A DNA stretch of 52,485 nucleotides, filler included, from Ionaspis alba (GCA_964255285.1; 2 parts of 2 records of this genome joined end to end with filler, not necessarily neighbours in it); one strand, 5' to 3'. Shown: positions 2,455 through 41,625, counted from the whole stretch's first letter. Notes: generated from the letters alone by a model not told the origin. Numbers and translations are program-made.

Positions 2455-3028
2455 AAATTGTCATTCGCCATGTTCAACAATTTCGAAATGCTTTTGGTTT
2501 GTATAGTAATTTCAAAACATAGGACGGCCTTGTCATGTTATTGAAAGAAAAGAATAAATCACAGGCTCATGACGAACTCTGTCCAAGAGCACATAGGATG
2601 CCTAGGCATGGCTCAATGACATGTATCAATAATCTTCAAGGCTATCATGACTATCCTGACTATTTCATAATACATATCAAGGCAAGTACATCCGTGACAG
2701 ATGTTAGACCAAAAAAGTATATTTGGAGAAATGGGGAAGAGCGTAATCGAGATTTGCGCCTCGTGACTCTTGTCCATCCTTACGAATCTCGATTTTTAGT
2801 GACAAGCCAGTATCAAAAGCATATTCTGCGACCATTGCAAGTCCATCTCGTGAATACTCTATCTAACCATTCCCGTGCCACGAGCGTACTGTGTTGATGG
2901 TTGCTGACTGCAGGACATTGCCGTGCCANNNNNNNNNNNNNNNNNNNNNNNNNNNNNNNNNNNNNNNNNNNNNNNNNNNNNNNNNNNNNNNNNNNNNNNN
3001 NNNNNNNNNNNNNNNNNNNNNNNNNNNN

Positions 3029-6310: not shown

Positions 6311-7273
6311 ATGGGTTCGACAAATTTTCTCGACGACATCTCCACCTTGGTCATGAAAAGCCCACCTGGCAGCAATATTGCATCTTCGCCCACAGCACTA
6401 CCATTGTCTCATCCACCTGCTTTCCTCCCCAAGCGTCGCAACGCACGAACAAGTGTGTCCGTATATACTATGCCCACAAATTCCCTACAACCTCGATACA
6501 TTGATCCCTTTAACATCAACACTTTACCGGAGCCCAACGATGGAGCAAAGCAGAATGCAATTGAATGCAGCCAAGCAGTAATGGCTCTGCCACCGCGTCT
6601 GTCGCAGCCGAGACCAAGACGGCAAGCAGCTGGAGCTGCCAACTACGATCTGCGAGAGGCATGGGGAACTTTCGATCACTTCTTGACAGAAAGTGTCAGT
6701 AGTGATAGTCAATACGACGAAAGTCAATTCGATCGCGCATCGAAACCTAATCCTGAGCTGTTCAAACGGAATTACAGGAAGCGTGAAAGAAGTGAAGCCT
6801 TGAGCGATGATGAGACTCAAAGCGACGTTTACAAGAGCGGAGGCAGCGATTCCAGGAAACGAGGCAAGGGGTTGAGAAAACCTAGGTCGAAGGGCACTGG
6901 ACGCAAAAAGGTGCGGGTGCCCAGGAAGCTGGATAGAGCGGATTTGGAGGTCATCGGCGGGATTGATCGGCCGAAGATATCTGGCCGCAAGAAGAACGAG
7001 AAGGGGAGGTTGACGAATCTGACGAAGGGGCAGGCTAGAACGATGGTGGATTTCCTTCTTGTCAATACTGACTGGCAAGAAGCTACCAGATGCATTAATG
7101 CGGCCTCAATAGTGAATCAACAGCAGGTATCAGTACCTAACGCAGAAGCAAGCACACCGATAGAGCCTTCATGGGCGATTGGAAACTCAGAATGGAGGAA
7201 AACAGCAGACCAGTTGACAAAACACTGGAAAGAGGATCTCAGTTGGCGGTTGGTGGATCTGTATGCAGATTGA
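6311..7273 (+). CDS. Hypothetical basic, low-complexity protein with C-terminal Myb/SANT-like module
   Basis: 320-aa intronless ORF with NLS-like RKRGKGLRKPRSKGTGRKK and C-terminal LTKGQARTMVDFLLVNTDWQEA...KTADQLTKHWKEDL. Confidence 0.65.
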   Translation: MGSTNFLDDISTLVMKSPPGSNIASSPTALPLSHPPAFLPKRRNARTSVSVYTMPTNSLQPRYIDPFNINTLPEPNDGAKQNAIECSQAVMALPPRLSQPRPRRQAAGAANYDLREAWGTFDHFLTESVSSDSQYDESQFDRASKPNPELFKRNYRKRERSEALSDDETQSDVYKSGGSDSRKRGKGLRKPRSKGTGRKKVRVPRKLDRADLEVIGGIDRPKISGRKKNEKGRLTNLTKGQARTMVDFLLVNTDWQEATRCINAASIVNQQQVSVPNAEASTPIEPSWAIGNSEWRKTADQLTKHWKEDLSWRLVDLYAD

Positions 7274-16618: not shown

Positions 16619-16828
16619 TGTATACATACTCGCAATACAGCTCGATCTCGAAATGGTCAATCCTCTTTATTCTNNNNNNNNNNNNNNNNNNNNNNNNNNN
16701 NNNNNNNNNNNNNNNNNNNNNNNNNNNNNNNNNNNNNNNNNNNNNNNNNNNNNNNNNNNNNNNNNNNNNNNNNTGTATACATACTCGCAATACAGCTCGA
16801 TCTCGAAATGGTCAATCCTCTTTATTCT
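16619..16828. repeat. 55-bp exact direct repeat flanking an N gap (probable unmerged contig overlap)
   Basis: TGTATACATACTCGCAATACAGCTCGATCTCGAAATGGTCAATCCTCTTTATTCT at 16619-16673 and again at 16774-16828. Confidence 0.85.
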
Positions 16829-18742: not shown

Positions 18743-20718
18743 ATGACGGACTACAACAAGCTTACAGTCGTCAAGCTCAAGGAAGAGCTCGAAAAGCGTG
18801 GTCTACCAAAAACCGGTCTCAAGGCCGCGCTCGTTGAGCGATTGAATGAAGCCGATGCGCAAGCAGCTTCCGTGAGCGCGGACTCTGCGAGAGAGGTCCC
18901 TGATCAGCCGGAAGCCGCGCAGAAAGTTGATACAGCGTCGATCATACAAAGCAATGATGGTATAGACTCGAGCACACAGGTTCTTGCCATTGTACCTCCT
19001 AGCGACAAGATCGACAACGCTCCTNNNNNNNNNNNNNNNNNNNNNNNNNNNNNNNNNNNNNNNNNNNNNNNNNNNNNNNNNNNNNNNNNNNNNNNNNNNN
19101 NNNNNNNNNNNNNNNNNNNNNNNNCGCTCCTGAGAAAGAAGACCCGTTAACACCAAAGACTGTTTCTCCCTCAGAGTCGGGAAAACTAGAAGAGCCTATT
19201 CAGCAACCAATCGAAGTCGACATCAACCATGACCAGCACGTCCTTGGTATTGATAGACCAGAAACAGCAATTGATACGGCAGCTACGGAAGTGAAAGAGC
19301 TTTCCAAGATACAAGATGCTGCTCCTACATTACCAGATTTTGCGACTACACCAGAGCGCAGCCAGACCGTCCAAGACAGCGGTACAGCCACGGCACAAGC
19401 CTCGAAGGAGACATCTGTGAATCGGGAGGAGATACTCGAAGACTCTCGGAAACGGAAGCGAAGAAGTCAGAGTCCTCCGCCTTCTTCGATAGATGCAGCA
19501 CAGAAGAAGGCAAAGGCGCAAGATGGAAGTCCGATTGTCAGATTACGGGAGGACACGGAAACAGAAGAACCCGCTCCGAGTCCTACCAAGGCCGAGATCG
19601 TATCCAGGGATGCATTGACAGACGACAAGACCAATGGGAAAGCGTCAAAAGAAGAGGAAGAGCATATTGTGAAAGACGAAGTCCCGTCTCGAACTGGCGA
19701 AAGGCGTGGGTCTACCATACATGAAACTCTACCATCGCCTTCCAAGATGTCGCCTACAGACACGCGGTTCAAGAATCTCTTCCCCGCACCTTCCAAGGAC
19801 CTGCCGACGTCCAAGCAGGATTCCTACCAGGATTTAGAAGATCGTGATATCCCACCCGCACTCCACCCCGCCACATCCTCTCTCTACATCCGCAACTTCA
19901 GCAGACCGTTGCATCCCGGTAACCTGAAGGAGCACCTTGCCTCTTTAGCACGTCCTGCACACTCAACTCCAGCTCCAGAAATCATCACCGACTTCTTCCT
20001 AGACACCATCAAGACTCATTGCCTAGTTCGCTTTTCTACCGTTGCCGCAGCATCAAGGGTCCGATCCGCGCTGCATGACAGGGTTTGGCCAGAAGAGAGG
20101 ACGAGGAAGCCACTGTGGGTAGATTTTGCGCCGGAAGAAAAGCTCCAGAAATGGATCGAAGTGGAGCAAGGAGCCGGGGGTAGTAGAGGGCAACCTGGGA
20201 AACGATGGGAGGTAGTCTACGAACAGGAGGACGGAAAAATCGCGGCCTATTTGCAGGAGACCGATGGGACAGCTGCGGCTCGTCCGTCTATATCGAATGG
20301 ACCAAGAATGGAAGCCGGAATGGGAGTTCAAGGAGCTCCATCGGGGCCGAGAATAACTGATGCGAGGTCCCAGCTACCACCTACACCCAGAGCCGATACA
20401 GGCAAAGGGTTCAAAGCGCTTGATGATCTGTTCAAGTCGACGACCGCGAAGCCGAAGCTCTATTTCCTGCCTGTTATTGAGGCCATTGCGAATAGGAGAT
20501 TGGACAAGCTGGCGGCGGGTCGAGGAGGGGGCAGGAGTGATGAGATGCGCCGATTCACCTTCGAGGACGAAGTTATTGTTGACAGAGGCCCAGAGTTCGG
20601 CTCGGGTTGGAGGGGAGGTCTCAGAGGCCGAGGTGGCTATTCAGGAGGATATTCAGGGCGGGGTGGAGGAGGTTACAGGGGTGGTCGTGGAGGTGACAGC
20701 TGGAGAGACGGACGATGA
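18743..20718 (+). CDS. Acinus-like protein: SAP domain, Acinus-type RRM, RSB motif, RGG tail (spans assembly gap)
   Basis: SAP domain YNKLTVVKLKEELEKRGLPKTGLKAALVERL; RRM HPATSSLYIRNFSRP...FFLDTIKTHCLV...ALHDRVWPEE; RSB-type LDDLFKSTTAKPKLYFLP. Merging the CGCTCCT overlap on both sides of gap 19025-19124 restores one frame. Confidence 0.87.
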
Positions 20719-25645: not shown

Positions 25646-26350
25646 TAGGCCTACGGGTTTCTAGTATTCCCTCAGTTCTACGTGACATCAAACGGTCGTA
25701 TAAACAAAGGCTAGATCAATTCGCTGCTTTCCTATCACTAGCTTTACAAGTCCTGATCACCTTCGTACTCCTCTAGCCATCATACTTTTCAACGAGACTA
25801 CATCCACGAAACCCAGGTGTCACATGCTTGGGCACTATATAAAAGCCTTAAGCTTGTCGTGAAATATGACAGAGCTCGTCCGGCTGATTTGACATCCGTT
25901 GAGAAGAGTTCGATATAATTCCTAACCCAGAGGTTGGGAGTATGCTATCTACAAAACCAGCGAATCGCTAGACCAAAGCCATGCCAAATGCAAGTACCTG
26001 GCAGACGTCCATCGCAACGGCTTGCCATACCCTTTCGCCTCCCTTTTCAAAGCTTCGCCCTTGTCCAATTTCGATCCATCACAAACCATATCCCTCATAA
26101 AAGTCATCATCTTCGCCCGTCGAGAGTTCATCCACCGTGCTCTTCAGCTGCAGATCCATTCGTCGTCATCGTCGTCAAATCATCATGGCAAGCAACAAGC
26201 CAGCCGGTGCATATGAACATAAAATCCAAACCCCCTCAAATCCTCGAGCCAATACCATTTCTCACCATCCACCCCACCAACCTCCCCGTCACGAGCTCCG
26301 ATACCCNNNNNNNNNNNNNNNNNNNNNNNNNNNNNNNNNNNNNNNNNNNN

Positions 26351-26362: not shown

Positions 26363-26515
26363 NNNNNNNNNNNNNNNNNNNNNNNNNNNNNNNNNNNNNN
26401 NNNNNNCAGCACCCATCTCCCCCATGCCCCTCTGACTCCACTTCCCCCCTCTCAAACCACCCAGATTACTTGACTCATCTCTGCGTCATCCCCACTCACT
26501 CACTCATTCACTCAC

Positions 26516-28397: not shown

Positions 28398-31300
28398 ATG
28401 GCGGAAGAAGTGAAGATCGACAAGCAGGTCTTTCAGGACCGGCTTGGGCAGCTCATCTCAGCATGGAAAGCCGACAAGAGATCGGGCGACGCGTTGTTCG
28501 GAGGCGCGACATCTATGGTCATCATACTGGGGAAATCAGATGACTCCTCGGGCTTTCAGAAAAATAATGCCCTGCATGTGAGTTGAAGGCTCAACTCACC
28601 TGTTGTAGGGCTTCTGGACTGACGAAGTGACTACGATAGTTCTGGCTACTTGGATACGAGTTTCCTGCCACAGTGTTCTTACTCACTACTGAGGTCATAT
28701 ATATAGTGACCACAGCAAAGAAAGGTGAGGTCTCAATGCTTGCGACGCATCTGTTGGTTCCAGCTGACTCCTGGTTCAATGTATAGCAAAACATCTCGAG
28801 CCTTTGAAGGGAGGCAAGATTCCGTTGGAGATCCTTGTGCGAGGCAAAGATGCGGAACAGAATGCCAAACATTGGGAGAAGTGCGTCGAGATCATCAAGG
28901 GAGCAGGAGTGAGTCACGAAGCTATCCCTTTATAGACCGTTGCTGACAACCTTGCAGAAGAAGGTTGGCATGATAGCGAAAGATACTTCTACGGGTCCGA
29001 TTGTGGATGAGTGGATAAAGGTCTGGAGTGATGCGTCAAATGACCTAGAAGAGGTTGACATTTCCAATGCACTGTCTGCTGCAGCTTTCTCTGCGAAGGA
29101 CGAAAATGAGCTCGTAAGCCACGTTTTATCTCTCTGGAACATCATTTTCGTGTTCTAATATCATTTAGCGATCGATACGCAATGCTGCGAAAGCTTGTAC
29201 CATACTCATGACCGACTGTTTCGTGGAGGAGATGTCAGAGATACTGGATGCGGAGAAGAAAGTCACACACAGAAAGCTTGCCGACATTATCGACAAGAAG
29301 ATCGACGATGGCAAGTTCTTTCCAGGCCTTAAGGCGAAACTACCATCCGATTTCAGCGTCGAACAGCTGGACTGGGTTTATGGTCCTGTGGTCCAGAGTG
29401 GGGGCAAATATGACTTGAAGATCACTGCAGCTTCCGACGACAACAATCTACACGCCGGGACCATCATTGCCGGTCTAGGTCTTCGCTACAAGAGCTACTG
29501 CTCGATTATAGCTCGTTCATACCTTGTGGACCCGAACAAGTCGCAGGAAAACAATTACAAACTGCTCTTGAGTATCCACGAAGCTGTGATCAAGGAGGCG
29601 CAAGATGGTGTTGCAGCTAAGGATCTCTATAACAAAGCAATAGGCATCATCAAGATCAAGAAGCCTGACATGGAGAAGCACTTCCTCAAGAACGTCGGTT
29701 GGGGCATCGGTCTTGAGACCCGTGACAGTACCTTACTCCTCAACGGCAAGAACTCAAGGATTCTCAAGGATGGTGTGACGCTCTGTATCACCACGGGATT
29801 TAGCGACATCGTCAATCCAGAACCTCAAGACAAGACGAGCAAAACGTATTCCTTGATGATTACCGATACTATCCGCATCAACAGAGACAACAAGCCCGCC
29901 GTTGTTTTCACAAGCGCCGCACCCTCAGACATTGAGTCTACCTCATTCTTCTTCAAAGACGACGACGAAGAAGCTGAACCAGCGCCAAAAGCAAAGGCGA
30001 AGAAAGATCCCAAGGTGGGAGCGATTGCTACTAGCAACATCACGAAGAGTTCACGTCGAGCCGAGAGGACTGCTCAGATCGACGAAGGTGCAGAGGCCAG
30101 ACGACGTCAGCATCAAAAGGAGCTTGCTCAGAAGAAGCAGGCAGAGGGCTTGGAGAGATACAGCGAGGCCACCGGAGACCAGAATGGTGTTGCGCAGAAG
30201 AAGTTCAAACGCTTTGAGTCTTACAAGCGCGATAATCAGCTTCCGTCTCGAGTCAAGGAGTTGGCGATCTTGGTTGATGCGAAAGCGGCTACAGTTGTGC
30301 TTCCGATCATGGGACGACCAGTGCCGTTCCATATTAATACCATCAAGAATGCAAGCAAGAGCGATGAAGGCGAGTTCACGTATCTGCGAATCAATTTCCT
30401 ATCGCCAGGTCAAGGTGTTGGCCGAAAGGACGATCAACCATTTGAGGACCCCAATGCTCATTTCGTTCGAAGCTTGACCTTCAGATCTAAGGATGGTAAT
30501 CGAATGGGAGATATCTCAGATCAGATTACCGATTTGAGGAAGAATATGGTTCGTCGAGAGCAGGAGAAGAAAGAGCTTGAGGATGTAGTCGAGCAGGACA
30601 AGCTCAGCGAGATCCGAAGTAAGTTGACATGCCGTTACATCGGACGTCCACTAACGTGCTTCAGATCGCAAGCCAGCTCGACTTGATAATGTGTTCGTAC
30701 GTCCTGCTATGGATGGTAAGCGTATCCCTGGCGAGGTCGAGATCCATCAAAATGGTCTTCGATACCGTGATCATCGTGGAAACAACATCGATCTGCTCTT
30801 CGGCAATGTCAAGCATCTGTTCTTCCAACCTTGCCAGCACGAGTTGATCGTTATCATTCACGTTCATCTCAAAAATCCCATCATGATCGGGAAGAAAAAA
30901 GCGAAGGACGTTCAATTCTACCGAGAGGCTACCGATATGCAGTTCGACGAGACGGGAAATCGCAAGCGCAAGCACCGACAACATGATGAGGAGGAATTTG
31001 AACAAGAGCAAGAGGAACGTAGACGTCGGATAGCTCTCGATAAGGAGTTCAAGAACTTTGCCGACAAGATCGCAAGCGCCGGCTCCGACCAAGGCGTCGC
31101 CGTAGACATACCTTTCCGCGACCTGGGCTTTGGTGGTGTTCCTAACCGCTCTAACGTCTTCATGCAACCCACTACCGACTGCTTGGTACAATTGACCGAG
31201 CCACCTTTCACGGTGATCTCTCTCGAGGAGATCGAAATCGCCCACCTCGAACGTGTCCAGTTTGGCCTAAAGAATTTCGACATGGTCTTCGTCTTCAAGG

Positions 31301-31758
31301 ACTTCCACCGCCCCCCGGCTCACGTCAACACCATCCCCGTCGAGTGCCTCGAAGGTGTCAAGGAGTGGCTCGACTCCTGCAACATCCAATACTCCGAAGG
31401 TCCACTCAACCTGAACTGGGGCACTATCATGAAAACCGTCACCCAAGACACGCACGGCTTCTTCGCCGATGGTGGCTGGTCATTCCTGGCAGCCGAATCA
31501 GACGAGGAGGATCAGTCGGATGAGGAAGAGGAATCAGCGTTCGAGGTTTCGGAATCTGAGCTTGCGGCTTCCGAAGAGTCGTCAGAGGATGATTCGGATT
31601 TCGACGATGATGCAAGTGCTGATGCGAGTGCGGATGCGAGCTTGGATGAGGAGAGTGCGGGCGAGGATTGGGATGAGTTGGAGAAGAAGGCGAAGAAGAA
31701 GGATCGTGAGAGCGGGTTGGTGGACGAGGAGGATAAAGGGAGGAAACGAAAGCGGTAG
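28398..31758 (+). CDS. SPT16: FACT complex subunit Spt16 (6 exons)
   Basis: [95 protein letters not shown] and acidic tail ending [11 protein letters not shown]. Confidence 0.98.
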
Positions 31759-32200
31759 TGCTGTAGTCACTGCTGCGAAACACTCATNNNNNNNNNNNNN
31801 NNNNNNNNNNNNNNNNNNNNNNNNNNNNNNNNNNNNNNNNNNNNNNNNNNNNNNNNNNNNNNNNNNNNNNNNNNNNNNNNNNNNNNNTTCCCAGTCTACG
31901 ACAGGAGCCTCACGAGCCCAGTTGCCGATTTGAATATAGGAATAGCTGGCACTACAAACAGCTAGCTGCCGAATTACATCTCCCTTCCATCATACCCTTA
32001 TCCTCCCTACAACATCCAGCCCCTACATCTCAAACATATCAGCGATATTTAATACATAACCTCTAAATATCACCCGCGCAGCAGATGTCAAAGGGCCCAA
32101 ATATGCGACCAGTTCAATCCCTCTCCAACGAATGTCCAGCTTTTGGTACGACTTTTTGCCCCTCGACCCAACCCCGTCCTCCAGAAAAGAGGAAAAGATC

Positions 32201-35050
32201 TCAGACACCAACACGCTGATAGAACAACAGGTAGGCAACCTTATTGTCCTTGACCGAGAATCTCCCAACCGGTGTTCTCTTCCCCGATGAGGTCGACGGT
32301 GTCGCAGTACCATTAACCACACCCGACCACTTCTTACCTGAAGCTGACTGATTCGAAGAGGCCGCTCCGTTCACCTGGCTCCACCCGCTCTCCGTCTGTG
32401 TCTTCTCCTCATTCTCCTCTCGGACTTGATCAAAGATGTCGCTGTTGGCACTCTGATCCCTCTTGTGCTGTTCAAGAGCGGCAGCTAGCACTTTCGGATC
32501 CTCTTCACTACCTCCCTCGGCCACGTCTTCGCTTCGTACACGCCGGATGACGGTGTCGTCCAGTCTGATCCACTCCCGACCATCTTGTCGTCTTACATCG
32601 ACGGTGTAGTGACCACCGCTGGCGTTCTTGCCGTGGTGGTATACAACACCGATGAGACGATATTTGGGCAGGCCTCCATGAGCTGCATAAGCGCCACGTT
32701 TATGTGCTGGGAAGATCTCTTTGGGTAGTTCCAATTCAAGAGGATATCCAATCTTCTTCCATATCTTCTGGGTGCCGCCTGCGTTGTCATATTGGAAACG
32801 TTTCAGATGTAGAATGAGAACTGGAGGCAACGTCTCGATAAAGACTTGCTTGGTGGCAGCGACACCAGGTCCTCGAGGCGAACTGAAGTCACCGTGAAGT
32901 GTCTCGGATCTGGTCAAACCTCTCAATGCGTCAATAATATTGTTGATCTGGGGCGAGCCGATGTCGAGCTGTAGGGGTTGGTACGGTTCTAGAGTGACAG
33001 AGTTTTTGGCACCTGGAATACGCAGCTCGGATCGCAGCTTTCCACCAAAGATCTTGGTAACAGGAGACTCGGTGGTTATGGTACCAGACGATCTTGTGAT
33101 GGCTGCCTTCTGGCGAGGACCAACCTCCAGCCATCCATTCCCATCCGACTGTCCTCTGTCGGTGATGGGCGATCTGATATCGTCGGACCTGTCACTAATG
33201 GATGCTGCTCTGGAAGTTGGAGCCTTCATAATCCTTGTACACTCATCGTGCATCTCTTCCAGCAGAAAGCCCAAGAACTCTTCCGCATCTTGCTGATGGC
33301 CACGCTGTGAAAGTCAGCAGACACTCATGTAGCCTCGGATGGTCACTTACTCTCATAGATGAGAATCTGGGTAGACGTCTGATGACCTCATAGACGAACT
33401 CCGGTATGAAGGCGTCTCCATACTCTTCAAGCTCGTTGTCCCTCAATCTCATCCGTAATTGTTCCACAGACACTGCTGAATCGATTATAGGAAATTCCCG
33501 CATGAACATGATCCTATTGTCCATTTGTCAACAGGGTTCGAGCCATTCGCAAATATTGCAACTCTTACATTGCATCTACCAAAGGAGTATCGCTTTTGAA
33601 GCTGTGGGCCGCTTGTTTACCGATTTGATCCAGGAAATTGTAGAAAGGGATGCAGAATACAAGTATTTGAAGGACCTTAAAGACTTTAGTTTGAACCATG
33701 GGAAAGGCAGCTGATAAGCTTACAGAGTTCATATAACACATATTTCCGGTATTGACAAGACCTCTTGGTTTGAGAAATGCGATCCTTGTCTCTGTATCGT
33801 TGTTGCTGACGCTAAAGGATGCTAGGACATCTGATAACGGGCTAGTCTTAGTGGCACTAACACCATTCGATTGATTATTGGAGACTTGTTCGGCTGAATT
33901 GCCACTTGGCGGTATTGCTGTTGTCTTCGTCCTCACGAGATCGGCCCATGACTTCGGAGTCGCCTTAATTTGGGGCGAGGTGGCTTTCGAGGTCTGCTCT
34001 GAGACTTGGTAGGGTGTGGTCTCTTCTTCTGGAGCCGATGCTATTGCCTCTGCGGCAGGTAATGACGGAGCTGACACGACCAAAGCATCTGTAGGCTTGT
34101 TTGCCTCAGATGTGATGCTGGTCGATTTCTTCCTCGACGCTGTCGAGAGAGACGGTATGTTCGGCACAACAGGAACGATTGGTCCTCTTTTGGTAGCGGG
34201 CCTAGATTCAGCTTTCGAATTTGAGCTAGATGATGTTCGTGGCGGTCCTTGCGGTGTGACCACAGATGAAGGTGTTGTAGGTTGTGTGGAGTCGGCTTCA
34301 GAAGGAGCTTGCGATGTAGTGGGAGTAGCAGAAGTAGATGGTAAAGGGTCTGGATGTAGATTACCAGAGGATATGTGGCTTGTTGGGGTAGGAGTAGTTT
34401 TAACATCAGGCGTATCTGTTTCTGTGGGTGTATTTATTCTTGGTGGTAGTTCTACAGGCAGGTTCGACGATTGGGGTGCCGGTCGCCGTCGCCGCCTTCT
34501 CGAGCTTTTTGGGGGAAAGTCTGCATCTGATACCGAGTACCAAGGAAGCTGTAGTACTGTTAGCAAAGGCAAAGACAGCCACAAAATGCGAGAGTAAGAG
34601 ACTCACAGGAGGGTAGAAAGGTGTACGCCGGATGATCGGTGGAGGAGCTGGTGGTGGGGATGGTCGAGGAGCAACAGGCGCTGGTGGCGTTTGTAGGGTT
34701 CGTGGAGGGGGAGAAAGCATGTCCTGTTGCGGTCGTGGCGATGATATGATTGGTGCATGGTGCTGAATATGTTGTCGAGGGGACATTGAGGTAGGAGGAT
34801 GATGAGGAGGTCCAGGATAAGGTGGATTCATCATCGGAGGATACTGATATTGCCTAGGCATTGGGTTTTGCATGTTTTGGTATGGTGGATACCAGGGCTG
34901 CTGCGGATGGAAATGCTGGGGCATATTGTGATGATATGGGTTGTAAGCGTGGGGAAACGGTTGAGATGGTGGCGGGGTGTACGGTGTATCCCTACGCCCA
35001 CTGTAAAGTGGTACCGCAGGCTGGACGTGCGATCCATGATGCCCATTCAT
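32201..35050 (-). CDS. UBP3: Ubiquitin-specific protease Ubp3/USP10 family (multi-exon)
   Basis: Cys box PRGLVNTGNMCYMNS|VLQIL, QQDAEEFLGFLLEEMH, SPVTKIFGGKLRS, LPPVLILHLKRF, His box YHHGKNASGGHYT and terminal AYLLFY. Long P/S-rich N-terminus with LPW and KSWADL motifs. Introns 34606-34549, 33723-33676 and further ones. Confidence 0.9.
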
Positions 35051-35535
35051 CACGAGAGAGGCCCCCGAGGCGGAACGAGAGGGAGGACCTCCTCAGGAAA
35101 GCGCGCCCAACATGGGCGAAGACGACAAAGGTTTTCTTAGCGGTAAGTCTAAGTCAATTAGATACACCACTCCACGTCGGCTGGAAATATTCCAATGAAT
35201 AAGTCGATGCAAGAAGTGAGCGGAGATTGGGAGCTGACCGTTGGCAGGAGATTCTTCAAGAACTTGGGGTTTCTTGCCGACTGCCTGAGGTTTACCTCGT
35301 TCGGAAATTCTGCCTAGACTCGATGCGTCTTAGTCATCGGTGCCGCGAATGGATGTTCCGCCTCTGTGGATGACGCTCCTCCAGTTACCACCCCTCGGGG
35401 TGATCAAGTTTTTACAGTACAACAAAGCCTACATAGCGGTTCCCTGGCGGCTGGGAAGGTCTTCACACTACATCTGACTCAGATATATTACTGGAACTGG
35501 ACTCTACAGATTCGGAGTCCGCGGGGCAGGACGCT
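35051..35535. promoter_or_regulatory. Putative bidirectional promoter shared by UBP3 and MAG2
   Basis: 485 bp between the divergent ATGs at 35050 (-) and 35536 (+). Confidence 0.55.
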
Positions 35536-37944
35536 ATGTCGTCAAGCTCAACTCCTTCGCTGGTCCTCTCGAAAGGCGTAAACGCACCCTCTCAATTACC
35601 GTCTCCTTCTCAATCTCAAGCACCTTCTCTACCTAGCAATGACAGTCATTCTCAGCGCCGCAGCGGTGGTTCAGGTAGCTTTGGAGCAGGAGCAAACAGC
35701 CGCTTGTCACAATCTAGTGCTAGGAACAATCAATCTTTTCGAAAGCAGAACAAGGGTCAACGACGACCAAGGCTATCGGGTGAGGATGCTGCTACCGAAT
35801 CTGTAAGTATATCATCACAGAGGCTCAATGACCCGGATATCTAGCTCACGATTAACTTATTGACAGGCTGCGATCAAGTCGACTAGCAGCCGCAAAGGGC
35901 AGACCTCTATAACCCACCTTATGCACTTCTCTCTCCCTCCTCGGCCTCAGAACCACCAGCACTCTCATCACGGACGACCAGTAAGACACAACCCGAGATG
36001 GGGTCTCGGCTCTGGATATCATGCTGTTGACAAAGCGAGGTCTGATTGCTCCTTCGCGCTACTCCTCGAATTAATGCTGAGAGTCACCACAGATGGATAC
36101 ATGCAAACTATCGATTCATCGTCGATCCGAGGGGAGATTATCACAAGCAGGCTATGAATGCAGATGTACATCTGGATTGGAACAATGTACTGCAAATTCT
36201 TGCTTCTGCAAAGTCCCAGACGGCCAGTTGCCCTATTTGTCTATCGACTCCAGTAGCTCCACGGATGGCGAAATGTGGGCATATGTTTTGTTTGCCGTGT
36301 CTGATCCGATACATGCACTCGACCGACGACACAACCCCCACTTTCGAAAAGAAAGCTAGGTGGAAGAAGTGTCCCATCTGCTGGGACAGCGTATATATAT
36401 CCGAAACCCGGCCGGTCCGCTGGTTCCATGGCCAAGAAGAAGACGCGCCCCATGAAGACGGAGATGTTGTGCTTCGACTCATGGTGAGGCAGGCTGGGAG
36501 TACCCTGGCTCTGCCTCGTGATGGTGCAGAGTCGCTGTCTACATCCGAGGACATTCCATGGTACTTTGCCGCTGAGGTGACCGATTATGCTCGTGTTATG
36601 AAGGGAACTGAAGAGTACATGCTGTTACAGTTCAGTCGTGAAATCGAGGAGCTCTCTATACAGGAAAAGGAGGACGAATTGATGTTTGGGGAGGAAACAC
36701 AATGGACAAGAAAAGCAATTGCAACCATCACCGAAGCCAAGGAGAAGGTCAAGGGCATCGGAAATCCACCAGTTGCCCACAGGAAACCGGAAGAGAGGAA
36801 GCCAAAGAGACCACCGATACAATTCCACGAATTGAATGACAACGTGCCAGACTTCTACTTTATTCAGCATGCTGCGAAAGCTGGTCACTCGAGAAATGAA
36901 GGTATCTATACGCCGGACGTGGTACCATCATTTACAGGCTCAAATAGTGGTACTAGCTCCGCAGCTGTCTCGGAAACGACCACTCCAGCAGAACCACAAT
37001 TATCAAAAGACTCGCCTCGGAATATCACATCGGCGCTTATTACGAATCCGATCAATACTCGCCTGAAAAGCGTTCGAATGGAACAGCCACACTCTACCGA
37101 TGCTCCGTACTTCTTTTATCAGGCTTTACTTCATTATTATCTATCTCCTCTTGATATTCGCATTCTCAAAGCAGCGTTTGGTGATTTTTCATCTTTTCCT
37201 ACCACTATTTTACCTCGAGTAGAGCGTGTGTCAACAGGCCATATCGTCGACGACGACCTGAGGAAACGTGCAAGATATCTTGCGCATCTTCCATACGGAT
37301 GTGAGGTCAGTTTCTTGGAATGCAACTGGACGGATGTTGTGGCTCCGGACGTTTTGGAGCATTTCAGACCTGATATAGAGCGGCGGAGGAAGAAGAACAT
37401 GGAGAAAGAGGTCAAGGAGGAGAAAGAGCGGGTGCGAGCAGAGAAAGAAGAGGATGACAAGAGATGGGCAGCTGCAAGGCGAAGGCGGCCGAGTACGACA
37501 AAAGACAAATTCATTTTATCGGATGGGCAAAGTCATGGAGACTTCATTGATGACCCACTCAATTCATCTTTGGTTGATCTTACTGCTCCTTCTTCATCTC
37601 CCCCTTGGCTCTCATCCCAAGCCCGCCAGGGTTCTGCTTTTGCCTCACTAGCCTCTCCCTCCACAAGTCCAGTGGCGCCAAGAACCGTCTGGGGAACTAC
37701 TGCAATAATTTCGAGCTCTCCCCCTCTACCATCAACAAGTCAAGAACGTGAGATTTCTGAGAACGATGGCTGGTTGCAGGGATGGGAGAAAGATTTGTTA
37801 CAAGATGAAGACTTGCTTTCGAGGTTTCGAGGTAGTTCTCTTGGAGAAGGGACATCGAAGATGGGATCGATGGCGGGAAGCAACAAGAAGAAGAAGAACA
37901 AGAAGATCACGCTGATGACTACCAATGCACGACGCGGAGCGTGA
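35536..37944 (+). CDS. MAG2: RING (C3HC4) E3 ligase, RNF10/Mag2 family (exons 35536-35802, 35867-36039, 36093-37944)
   Basis: SITHLMHFSLPPR, DKAR|WIHANYRFIV, RING CPICL...APRMAKCGHMFCLPCL...WKKCPICW, YFFYQA...YLSPLDIRILK, LRKRARYLAHLP and terminal KKKKNKKITLMTT, all RNF10/Mag2 hallmarks. Confidence 0.9.
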
Positions 37945-38366
37945 TAAATTTTTGAACATTCGAATGGCCCCCATCAGCGAAAGGTTTCGAGATGCTTCAC
38001 TACGTTGTATATAGACTCTTGAATAGTTGGAAGGCTTTTCTGAATTGTAGCAAAGTTCTTAGGACTCTTAGTGACATATCTTCTGATGCTTGTAGGAGTG
38101 GACGAATTTTATACCCCTAAGATTGGTAGTTCTTCAAAACAGGTAAGGCGTGTTGTCGTGTCTACTGCCCTACATCATCGATGCGCGCCACGCGTATTTG
38201 ACGAGAAAGAAAATTAGTAAATACCCCTGGACAACTGTGCGCTCCCCAACATCTTTATTTGGGCTCTGAGTACTAATTTCTACAGAAGCCACGTGTACTA
38301 GTCATGATAAGCCGAGTTTTCTAGAGGCCGGAAGGAGACAGGACTCGTCAGTGCGAGAGTGTCACC

Positions 38367-40234
38367 ATGGCTATCCAAACCAGATCTCAACGGGGCATAA
38401 CTCCAAGGTGAGTTTTGTACATTCCGAATGGCTTCTCTGAAGTCGCATTTGTATGTCTCCGAAACTTCACTAAGGATACAGTAGGAAAACGGAGCATCCA
38501 GGCATGGTTGAAACACCACATCGTCGAAAAAACCGAAAGTCAACAAACGTAGAGGTGAAGGAGGAGTCTTCGGGCGAAACAGAATCAAACGATTCAGAGA
38601 TCAAGCTCGATGACGGTATCGAAGTTCAAGTCCCGAACATCAGACGCAACGGTGCGGCGAAGGAGAATGGGGCCGCCAATGGACACGCAGAGCAAAATTC
38701 ATTGGAGCACAAACGAAGGGAGGAGAAAGACCCACGCATTGACTATAGTGGCCACTTCGAGTTCGGAGGCTCCTGGGGAGTGTCAGCCATGATGATAGGC
38801 TTCCCTGCCTTGATGTACTACATGTGGTTGGGAGCAACATACTACAATGGCAAATTCCCGACTCCTGCGAAAGGAGAGAGCATGTCACAATTTTTCCGGC
38901 ATATGGGGCATTTGATCTACGAAGGCGCTTTCCCGTCGCTCAAGGCTTGGGCGATATATTGGACTTTCTTCGTCTTTGAGGCTGCTTGCTATCTTTTGCT
39001 TCCTGGAGTGTATACCAAAGGCAAACCATTATCCCACGAGGGTGGGAAGCAATTGACCTATTACTGTTCCGGAGTCTGGTCTTTTTATACCACTATTGCC
39101 GTGATGGGCGCACTGCATTACACGGGGCTTTTCAAGCTATACACAATCATTGACGAGTTTGGTCCGCTTATGTCTGTGGCAATCATATCTGGATTCGTTG
39201 TTTCTTTCATTGCATATTTCTCAGCTCTGTACCGAGGCGCAGAGCATCGCATGAGCGGTCACGCAGTCTACGACTTCTTTATGGGTGCTGAGCTTAATCC
39301 CAGGATGTTTGGCCTTCTGGATTTCAAGATGTTCTTTGAGGTCCGACTCCCGTGGTATATTCTATTCTTGCTGTCTTGTGGTGCAGCTGCTCGTCAGTAC
39401 GAGCAGTTCGGTTGGGTATCTGGCGAAGTAGCTTTCCTTGTGATGGCACATTTCTTGTATGCCAATGCTTGCTCGAAAGGCGAGGAATGTATTGCGACGA
39501 CCTGGTGCGTGCCATGTTTCTGGGATCTCCATCATATATCGTTGGCTTATCAGCTGTTCTAGGGATATGTATTACGAGAAGTGGGGTTTTATGCTCATTT
39601 TCTGGAATCTTGCAGGCGTTCCCCTTAGCTATTGCCATTGCACGATATACCTGGCCAACCACGCTCCATCAGTGTATCATTGGAATCGAGTTGCGTTAAT
39701 CGTGCTCTACGTATCGTATATTTTCGTGTACTGGGTTTGGGATACTTGCAACAGTCAAAAGAATCGATTCCGGCAACAAGAGCGTGGTACCCTTATGCAG
39801 AGGAAGGCTTTTCCTCAATTGCCGTGGCAGACCGTCAAGAACCCAAAGACTATAAAGACCGATACAGGAGACTCTATTCTCGTCGACGGATGGTGTATGT
39901 ATTTCTCTAGAGTTCCGTCCACACTCAAACTGATTTGTGTCAAGATGGATATGCGCGCAAGATACACTACACGGCGGACCTGTTCTTCGCTCTTACCTGG
40001 GGTCTTGTAACTGGATTCGACAGTCCAATGCCCTGGTTCTACCCGGTGTTTTTCACGGGCATGATTTCGCATCGTGCATACCGTGATATCCAAAAATGCG
40101 AAGCTAAGTACGGGGAAGCTTGGAAGGAATATACAAGAAGAGTTCCATATTTGTTCATACCTGTCAGTCTGCTCAGCGCTCCCTATCGACGTAGTCTTAA
40201 TCTTATTGCTAACAGTTCAAAGTATGTTTTCTAG
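38367..40234 (+). CDS. ERG4: Delta-24(24(1))-sterol reductase (ERG4/ERG24 family), 5 exons
   Basis: [45 protein letters not shown]...[41 protein letters not shown] and VPYLFIP|YVF. First intron 38408-38484 is phase-consistent. Confidence 0.95.
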
Positions 40235-40455
40235 CTTGCACGCAGTCACCTGTATAATACCGATGCATAGCATAATATAATACATAACTTTTTATCTCAA
40301 CTCGTTCTTCGTTACGATCGTTTCCATCAAGAGCTTTCGGCATACCGTCATCTTGCATCGGCTAAGTAACAATCCCTGCCGCCAAAGTTTCGCCTATCTG
40401 CCTGCATCGAATTGTTGGATCTCGAGCTTTGCTGTATCTTCCACCCACCTCTACG

Positions 40456-41625
40456 ATGCTAATCACAGAGACTCATCAAGATGTGGCAACCAGAGCCGAT
40501 GGCAATGGCACAATGCGTAACCGACTCTTCGACCCCTTTATCCCGCAATGATCTGATCCCTTCCAGGCATATTTCTCTACCACCCCACCATACCCAATTA
40601 CCCTAAAGCTCGCTTCCCTGGCGTCGTTGTCTTCAGCGAGATCTACCAAGGCTCGGCATCCGCACCAATTATGGGTGGTAAAGAACGTACTGAGTAGCCC
40701 CAATAGTGACTGGCCCTGTGGCCCGCTTCTGCCGCCAAATTGCTGGTCAAGGCTACATCGTCGCAGCCCCAAGCAGCTATCACGAATTCACGGGTCCAGA
40801 GCCCCTAGCCTACGACGTGCCGGGCACAGACGCCGGTAATGAATACAAGATCAAGAAGGTCTCTTAGCCCTACCAAGGCCTTTGCACCGTCTTACTGGAC
40901 TCGTCAATTACTGAGGATTTCATATGCAGAAAGTCGACGCTTACGATGAAGATTCGACCCTGGCGGTTTCCGCACTCCTTGACCTTCCTACCTGTAACGG
41001 CCGGATTGGCGCTACCGGGATGTGCCTAGGAGGCCATTTGGCTTACAGGTGTGCGCTGGACAAGAGGGTCAGCGCTACAGTCTGCTATTTCGCGACGGAT
41101 ATACACAGCCATAGCTTGGGAGAAGGGATGAAGGATGACAGTCTGGAAAGGGCGGCAGATATCAGAGGAGAGCTCGTAATGGTGAGATGGTAGGGGTCGA
41201 AGTTGGATAGTAGTGTTTTTGACTGACATTCTCTGTCCGTTCAGATATTTGGGAAGAGTGAGTTGTGCCCGGTCGAAGAAGAGATCAACGGCTGACCTGT
41301 GGTAGAGGATAATCACGTTCCACCACAAGGAAGAGATTTGATTAGGAAGACCTTGCACGAAGCTGGGATTGTGTTTTCATGGTATGAAGTTGCGTGGGCG
41401 CAGCGTAAGCAGTCCTTACTTCGCCATTTTTGTCAAGGGAGGGAGAATGCTGCTCATGCTTTGTGTGCAGATGCTTTCATACGAGATGAACTCAGCAAAG
41501 GCCGCTATGATCCGGCAATATCGAAGATTTGCTTTGAGATGTTATTGGAGCTATTCGGGAGGACGCTAAAGCTGGATGTTGGGGATCGTAGTGGTGGCGA
41601 GCAGAAGATTGAAGACGTCTGCTGA
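40456..41625 (+). CDS. Dienelactone hydrolase family protein (multi-exon, includes 13-nt micro-exon)
   Basis: FSEIYQ|VTGPVARFCRQIAGQGY, nucleophile GMCLGG, CYFATDIH, IFGK|KDNHVP and HAFIRDE; catalytic Cys/Asp/His present. Confidence 0.93.

Follow-up and report, generated by a model that had tools for sequence, protein, structure and literature searches.

Why should the gene for an enzyme that writes a ubiquitin mark on the ribosome stand head-to-head with the gene for the enzyme that removes it? The question is raised by a stretch of DNA of 52,485 nucleotides (filler included) from Ionaspis alba (GCA_964255285.1), which is called the window in the following. When positions 32201..37944 were analyzed, a Ubp3/USP10-type deubiquitinase gene and a Mag2/RNF10-type RING ubiquitin ligase (E3) gene were found to diverge from a short common spacer (Table 1). 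The divergent Ubp3-Mag2 pair is real, ancient and widespread in ascomycetes. As to the reason, we see an even chance that it lies in selection for a balanced writer-to-eraser dosage, brought about by the linkage of the two genes.

The opposition of the two activities is known from other systems. In human cells, where the direct pairing is established, RNF10 puts ubiquitin on uS3 and uS5 and USP10 reverses this (PMC10878831); the antagonism is also described in PMC12008924. Yeast Mag2 ubiquitinates uS3 and uS5 (PMC12700985), and Ubp3 acts on Rps3 monoubiquitin according to the title of Jung et al. 2017 (cited in PMC12700985). In the text available from PMC10878831 and PMC12700985, yeast Ubp3 is linked to the Hel2-dependent Rps3 and eS7 marks only. 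The biochemistry of writer and eraser on which the initial annotation of the locus was built is as printed in these two sources.

The gene models reproduced both start codons of that annotation (35050 on the minus strand and 35536 on the plus strand) as well as its 485-bp divergent spacer. An in-frame stop lies directly upstream of the deubiquitinase ATG. The intron between exons 2 and 3 of this gene (33676..33723, 48 nt) is in frame and contains no stops, so that tblastn reads through it; its 16 residues are absent from the relatives. The translation carries a USP domain (Pfam UCH PF00443, E-value 6.5e-27) with a Cys-box-like NTGNMCYMN and a His-box-like GGHYTVD, and roughly 400 residues of Pro/Gln-rich N terminus precede the Cys box. 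No solved chain matched this N-terminal linker at E-values up to 1. In the ligase gene both introns (2/2) have GT..AG borders, and a C3HC4 RING was detected at residues 26-76 of the exon-3 open reading frame (ORF) with Pfam zf-C3HC4 (28.9 bits, cut-off 21); related RING models of Pfam match the same stretch.

Table 1 Coordinates of the divergent pair, its spacer and the neighbouring genes in the window
Feature	Position	Strand	Evidence
Deubiquitinase gene, 5 exons, 880 amino acids	join(35050..34607, 34548..33724, 33675..33569, 33513..33351, 33304..32201)	-	tblastn and sequence reading
Deubiquitinase exon 1, Pro/Gln-rich N terminus, ATG 35050	34607..35050	-	P0124 aligned from its residue 1
Deubiquitinase exon 2, low-complexity linker, then Cys box NTGNMCYMN	33724..34548	-	tblastn and sequence
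Deubiquitinase exon 3	33569..33675	-	tblastn and sequence
Deubiquitinase exon 4	33351..33513	-	tblastn of P0121, P0130 and P0153; GT..AG borders
Deubiquitinase exon 5, C-terminal USP part, His box, stop 32201	32201..33304	-	Pfam, tblastn exon bounds
Divergent spacer, ATG to ATG, 485 bp	35051..35535	.	sequence
Candidate conserved element GAGGGGTG, reading towards the deubiquitinase, 140 bp before the ligase ATG	35389..35396	-	motif count
Ligase gene, 3 exons, 763 amino acids	join(35536..35802, 35867..36039, 36093..37944)	+	tblastn of full-length relatives and sequence reading
Ligase exon 1, ATG 35536	35536..35802	+	tblastn of P0009, P0016 and P0119 from residue 1; GTAAGT at 35803
Ligase exon 2	35867..36039	+	tblastn and sequence
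Ligase exon 3, C3HC4 RING and long conserved C-terminal region, stop 37944	36093..37944	+	Pfam RING families, relatives
SPT16 (FACT subunit)	29208..31758	+	Pfam SPT16, PH_SPT16, SPT16_C
ERG4/ERG24-family sterol reductase, tandem downstream of the ligase, at least two reading frames	38504..40010	+	PF01222, E-values 1.3e-73 and 1.1e-32
Dienelactone-hydrolase-family gene, fourth member of the block	40706..41622	+	tblastn with the hydrolase ORFs of L076, L059 and L054, E-value 2.8e-78

If the two products were some other USP and some other RING protein, no writer-eraser relation would exist. Such a reading could draw on the structure searches, in which the best solved structures for the deubiquitinase were other USPs (USP15, Ubp8 and USP2, E-values about 1e-18) in a library that lacks the USP10 catalytic domain, and the ligase gave generic RINGs only in a library that lacks RNF10; Pfam has no subfamily model. 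However, the names given by independent sources agree, and the homology of the ligase is not confined to the RING but covers its full length, and the C-terminal blocks are invariant among the aligned relatives. Relatives of the deubiquitinase bear the names 'mRNA-binding ubiquitin-specific protease UBP3', 'probable ubiquitin carboxyl-terminal hydrolase 3' and 'ubiquitin carboxyl-terminal hydrolase 10', and an 867-amino-acid Lignoscripta protein shares 82% identity with the exon 5 part.

For the ligase, one protein search returned 1945 relatives, and the representative library contains 284 related clusters at E-values of 1e-30 or lower. The closest named relatives are from Lambiella and Xylographa (68% identity over 605 columns). 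The Schizosaccharomyces pombe protein P8B7.23 (O94271) is a whole-length relative with an E-value of 2e-75 and 42% identity. More distant matches include Sugiyamaella 'Mag2p' (E-value 1.4e-63) and the 'RING finger protein 10' of two chytrids (one of them Geranomyces, E-value 5.8e-46). Source names also include 'putative RING-finger protein Mag2/Rnf10' (Septoria) and 'ring finger protein P8B7.23'. The protein atlas gives generic cluster names apart from one neighbour cluster with the automatic name 'Alkylbase DNA N-glycosylase', which is presumably an old name of yeast MAG2; the yeast gene YLR427W is taken here to be MAG2.

Both genes can also be followed into Aspergillus fumigatus. MBGD pairs yeast YLR427W with AFUA_1G07150 (PMC3289889) and FungiDB names Afu1g07160 ubp3 (PMC8406193); the two tags adjoin, and their surroundings are those of a Eurotiales-like locus in our survey (L042, see below), where erg4B and a Na/H antiporter gene flank the pair. 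In addition, one deubiquitinase relative (64% identity) falls into the same 90% cluster as a protein of A. fumigatus Af293 that bears the product name of Afu1g07160 (PMC2526178) and is probably the same protein. The putative orthology of both window genes rests on the annotation of others and on one indirect chain (MBGD, FungiDB and the shared four-gene block described below). The Mag2/RNF10-type and Ubp3/USP10-type identities proposed at the outset thus agree with the source names of the relatives of both genes, and we consider membership of other families very improbable.

Conservation of the pair was surveyed in metagenome contigs, which were scanned with the ligase alignment. The best 80 of 222 confirmed stretches, with flanks of up to 10 kb in both directions, were grouped into 47 lineages at 93% protein identity; a lineage counted as evaluable for the deubiquitinase if 5 kb or more of sequence preceded ligase exon 3. 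Lineage labels are similarity-based, taken from the best match to 52 named deubiquitinases and from a 69-row ligase tree that was built with quick IQ-TREE and had its root set at S. pombe, S. japonicus and Protomyces. The survey covers Saccharomycotina by gene names only and leaves out Sordariomycetes, Pezizomycetes and Basidiomycota. The deubiquitinase was found upstream of the ligase on the opposite strand in 21 of the 26 evaluable lineages. By label they are Lecanoromycetes-like, Leotiomycetes-like and Eurotiomycetes-like lineages (one of the latter 91% identical to Thermoascus) and Pleosporomycetidae-like Dothideomycetes. When N-terminal matches and locus tags were added, the pair was kept in 31 of 38 tree rows. 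Among the eight named lichen-type species common to both lists of relatives, seven have consecutive NCBI locus tags for the two genes (Xylographa trunciseda, X. soralifera, Lambiella, Candelaria, Candelina, Chaenotheca and Psora testacea).

The initial annotation had cautioned that adjacency in one genome may be due to chance, and a window that is a lichen-type ascomycete scaffold with six N runs could raise the suspicion of an assembly artefact. The runs are located at 2929-3028, 16674-16773, 19025-19124, 26307-26350, 26363-26406 and 31788-31887, four of them being exactly 100 long. However, none falls within 32201..37944, and the same arrangement is observed in dozens of independent contigs and in named genomes. 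With the pair recurring in the lineages and the seven named genomes listed above, an adjacency private to this genome, or created by its assembly, has a negligible probability. The head-to-head pair dates back at least to the ancestor shared by Lecanoromycetes, Eurotiomycetes, Leotiomycetes and Dothideomycetes. No description of a UBP3-MAG2 linkage was found in the literature searched for these genes together with genomic-linkage terms.

In A. fumigatus the published order is Afu1g07130 (dienelactone hydrolase), 07140 (erg4B), 07150 ('RING finger domain protein (Rnf10)'), 07160 ('ubiquitin C-terminal hydrolase') and 07170 (Na/H antiporter) (PMC2526178, PMC6445940). From 07130 to 07160 this is the four-gene order of the window. 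The adjacency is one of tag order, as the tables of PMC2526178 give no strands, and it is annotated there and not remarked on in the parts available. Exactly one tag separates the erg4B and ubp3 orthologues in Neosartorya fischeri, Aspergillus clavatus and Aspergillus oryzae (PMC2526178). The ubp3 gene of S. pombe is SPBP8B7.21 (PMC3032702, PMC5409535). On the plus strand of chromosome II, SPBP8B7.21 occupies 3677649-3679620, SPBP8B7.22 occupies 3679946-3681081 and SPBP8B7.23 occupies 3681879-3684332 (PMC6097657 Table S7). The distance from ubp3 to the ligase relative P8B7.23 is therefore 2.26 kb, with one gene between them. Two given genes would come to lie within two positions of each other by chance with a probability of about 8e-4 among about 5100 genes, which we take to be the S. 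pombe gene number; ERG4 is presumably elsewhere in that genome. The linkage is probably as old as the ascomycetes.

Is the pair more stable than its surroundings? Retention was measured against the neighbouring junctions of the same locus, and lineages with at least 3 kb downstream of the ligase were evaluable for MAG2-ERG4. While the head-to-head UBP3-MAG2 arrangement is kept in 21/26 lineages, the MAG2-ERG4 tandem is kept in 9/28, and SPT16 is within reach of the UBP3 3' end in 3/16, all three with a mitochondrial-carrier ORF in between and SPT16 on the other strand. The lineage counts differ (Fisher p = 4e-4), and since the lineages are not independent of each other, the number of events on the tree is the fair measure. 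On the same 28 rows the fewest changes are two for UBP3-MAG2 versus seven for MAG2-ERG4, a difference with p = 0.09. The pair has thus outlasted both flanking pairs, which was the comparison suggested for it beforehand. Moreover, ERG4 is located beyond the deubiquitinase rather than beyond the ligase in four lineages (three Leotiomycetes-like lineages and c25), and the simplest reading is a joint inversion of UBP3 and MAG2 as one block, with a breakpoint at either side of it.

Two breaks of the pair were observed. The first is confined to one lineage (L015, L016) that the tree places amid Lecanorales-like ones, with an alpha/beta-hydrolase ORF upstream of the ligase. The second comprises a whole Dothideomycetidae-like clade, which is joined on the tree with Aureobasidium, Neodothiora, Elsinoe, Zymoseptoria, Fulvia, Cercospora and Saxophila. 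In all six evaluable lineages of this clade a dienelactone-hydrolase gene is head-to-head with the ligase (as at L054, L059, L066, L067, L076 and L050). As this hydrolase is found on the opposite strand just past the 3' end of the deubiquitinase gene in three Pleosporomycetidae-like lineages, a single inversion that broke within the spacer would account for the loss in the entire clade.

Two side observations were made on exceptional loci. Two zinc-knuckle (zf-CCHC) ORFs are found upstream of the ligase at L015:4130-5167 (minus strand) and may have been left by a mobile element at the break; the interval from these ORFs to the ligase is occupied by a pof12-type F-box gene and the alpha/beta-hydrolase ORF. 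In X. opegraphella, the eighth of the lichen-type species, the two tags are 11 apart and the longest contigs of the clusters are 38,815 versus 42,564, so that the case may be a third break or the product of a fragmented assembly.

How linkage might act is best considered from the spacer. The window pair combines head-to-head orientation with a short spacer, as in bidirectional-promoter pairs, and the spacer estimates for 28 other lineages range from 454 to 2006 bp, most of them between 600 and 950. In the proposed mechanism, both genes would be transcribed out of a single compact spacer of about 0.5 to 0.9 kb that is probably free of nucleosomes. Its shared local chromatin state would set the basal output of both genes and hence a steady writer-to-eraser ratio, and gene-specific elements would still allow UBP3 to be regulated separately under stress. 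Breaks in the spacer would be disfavoured twice, as they would cut two promoters and uncouple the pair.

Rfam, tRNA and repeat scans of the window spacer gave no Rfam match, no tRNA and no notable repeat. A candidate element was obtained by motif counting. When the 700 bp upstream of the ligase were compared in 40 lineages, GAGGGG[CT]G was found reading towards the deubiquitinase in 14 and in the opposite orientation in one, and its density there was 4-fold that in the rest of the loci. It is mostly placed 150 to 340 bp ahead of the ligase ATG in Lecanoromycetes-, Leotiomycetes- and Eurotiomycetes-like lineages (among them L012, L019, L021, L031, L038, L042 and L060), and it is accompanied by GGGGAGTCAC in Leotiomycetes-like spacers. 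None was present in the seven lineages examined from the clade without the linkage. As the lineages are related, we treat the element as a lead and not as a result. A Gcn4-type TGACTCA located 60 bp before the ligase ATG was dropped, as it occurs in only 2 of 29 spacers (the window and c22).

The same record could have arisen by neutral, structural retention. The two genes would then have been neighbours since an early ascomycete and would have been kept together by a short two-promoter spacer that is costly to break and offers little room for the local inversions by which filamentous-ascomycete chromosomes are shuffled, their functional relation being coincidental. We rate this explanation a little short of even. 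Four points stand against it: the proximity also survives in S. pombe at the chance level given above, the pair outlasts both flanking junctions, the pair was inverted as a unit, and chance should seldom produce deeply conserved pairs that act oppositely on the same residues.

Several results, however, favour neutral retention or weigh against selection on dosage. The hydrolase-MAG2 pair that replaced the original one by a single inversion has no evident functional relation, and it has remained unbroken since its origin (6/6). It is a natural control, which demonstrates that no shared function is needed for a head-to-head pair to persist at this locus. ERG4 and the hydrolase also stay nearby from the window to A. 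fumigatus. The pair belongs to a conserved four-gene block, and the region as a whole rearranges slowly. The yardstick for retention is the neighbouring junctions and not a genome-wide null, and the break counts do not differ significantly when taken alone. Filamentous ascomycetes keep their genes on the same chromosome and randomise order and orientation (PMC3219968). In S. pombe the genes are tandem on the same strand with SPBP8B7.22 between them and have no shared spacer, unlike in the window; what is conserved there is thus proximity and not a shared promoter. In Saccharomyces cerevisiae, UBP3 is YER151C (PMC4219333) and YLR427W is on chromosome 12 (PMC3289889). Their names assign the two genes to different chromosomes, and the pathway is functional in budding yeast with the genes unlinked.

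Expression data point in the same direction. They were taken from published A. fumigatus arrays, which represent another species, old platforms and few conditions. The log2 ratios of Rnf10 and ubp3, respectively, are +0.02 and -3.85 for mouse lung versus culture and +0.15 and -0.33 for hydroxyproline versus YPD (PMC2526178 supplement). Under hypoxia they are -0.21 and +0.34 at 2 h, -0.04 and -0.28 at 6 h, -0.12 and +0.05 at 12 h, and -0.08 and +0.15 at 24 h (PMC3293747 supplement file 4). No co-variation was seen, as Rnf10 is flat in all six contrasts and ubp3 stays within 0.34 in five of them. The discordant contrast is the one in vivo, where ubp3 is down about 14-fold (flagged as very highly down) and Rnf10 remains flat, which indicates that the two promoters can act independently. 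In the same mouse lung contrast erg4B (-2.90) and the Na/H antiporter gene (-2.59) also fall, so that Rnf10 appears as an unchanged island in a co-repressed neighbourhood.

For the initial annotation, which had regarded the locus as a two-gene ribosome quality-control module under joint or reciprocal control, the outcome is mixed. The linkage holds, and so, by the source names, do the family identities. Co-regulation was not seen, and uncorrelated expression, named in advance as an argument against the module, was partly encountered in the A. fumigatus arrays (one discordant contrast and five flat ones); the tandem order in S. pombe and the equal stability of the replacement pair also speak against it.

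Balanced dosage through linkage keeps its even standing against these points. A stronger version, in which selection has maintained the linkage since the origin of the ascomycetes and proximity fixes the ratio that decides between rescue and destruction of stalled 40S subunits, appears rather unlikely to us. If it were true, the head-to-head order of Pezizomycotina and the tandem order of fission yeast would both serve this ratio, and Dothideomycetidae and budding yeast would have had to rewire its control.

The remaining genes around the pair complete the picture of the block. Both flanks named beforehand, SPT16 and ERG4, were confirmed by Pfam. The adjacency of SPT16 and the deubiquitinase holds at scaffold level only, since the 100-N gap at 31788..31887 separates the SPT16 stop from the deubiquitinase 3' end. 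The block of deubiquitinase, ligase, ERG4 and hydrolase (32201-41622) has the order of Afu1g07160 to Afu1g07130. In c01 and c22 the deubiquitinase is upstream and is followed by ligase, ERG4 and hydrolase as in the window. Locus L008 (c03) has the last three genes in order on a contig that ends too early upstream to reveal the deubiquitinase.

The locus matters under either explanation. If the linkage is selected, it would be evolutionary evidence, independent of biochemistry, that Ubp3 physiologically opposes Mag2 in fungi. If it is neutral, it would be a clean example of the long persistence of a tight divergent pair amid the frequent inversions of filamentous ascomycetes. The Dothideomycetes offer a natural experiment, with sister groups that have the linkage (Pleosporomycetidae-like) and lack it (Dothideomycetidae-like). 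The compact 0.5-kb spacer could serve as a test bed for how cells set the ratio of E3 to deubiquitinase.

Among known systems, human RNF10 and USP10 (with G3BP1) belong to the same two protein families as the window genes and set 40S fate via monoubiquitin on uS3/uS5. No report of a genomic linkage of human RNF10 and USP10 was found in the literature searched, and the two genes are presumably on different chromosomes. S. cerevisiae Mag2, which acts in 18S non-functional rRNA decay, and Ubp3-Bre5 are of the same families again, with unlinked genes. In fungi, divergent pairs are generally better conserved than pairs in other orientations. A likeness in gene order is seen in conserved bidirectional pairs with cooperating products, such as DTX3L-PARP9, also a head-to-head pair from one pathway that was long kept together (bioRxiv 10.64898/2026.04.23.720386). 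The products of DTX3L-PARP9 form one complex, whereas those of the window pair oppose each other and their co-expression is so far unsupported. The window pair can thus be added as a further case of a conserved divergent pair of functionally related genes.

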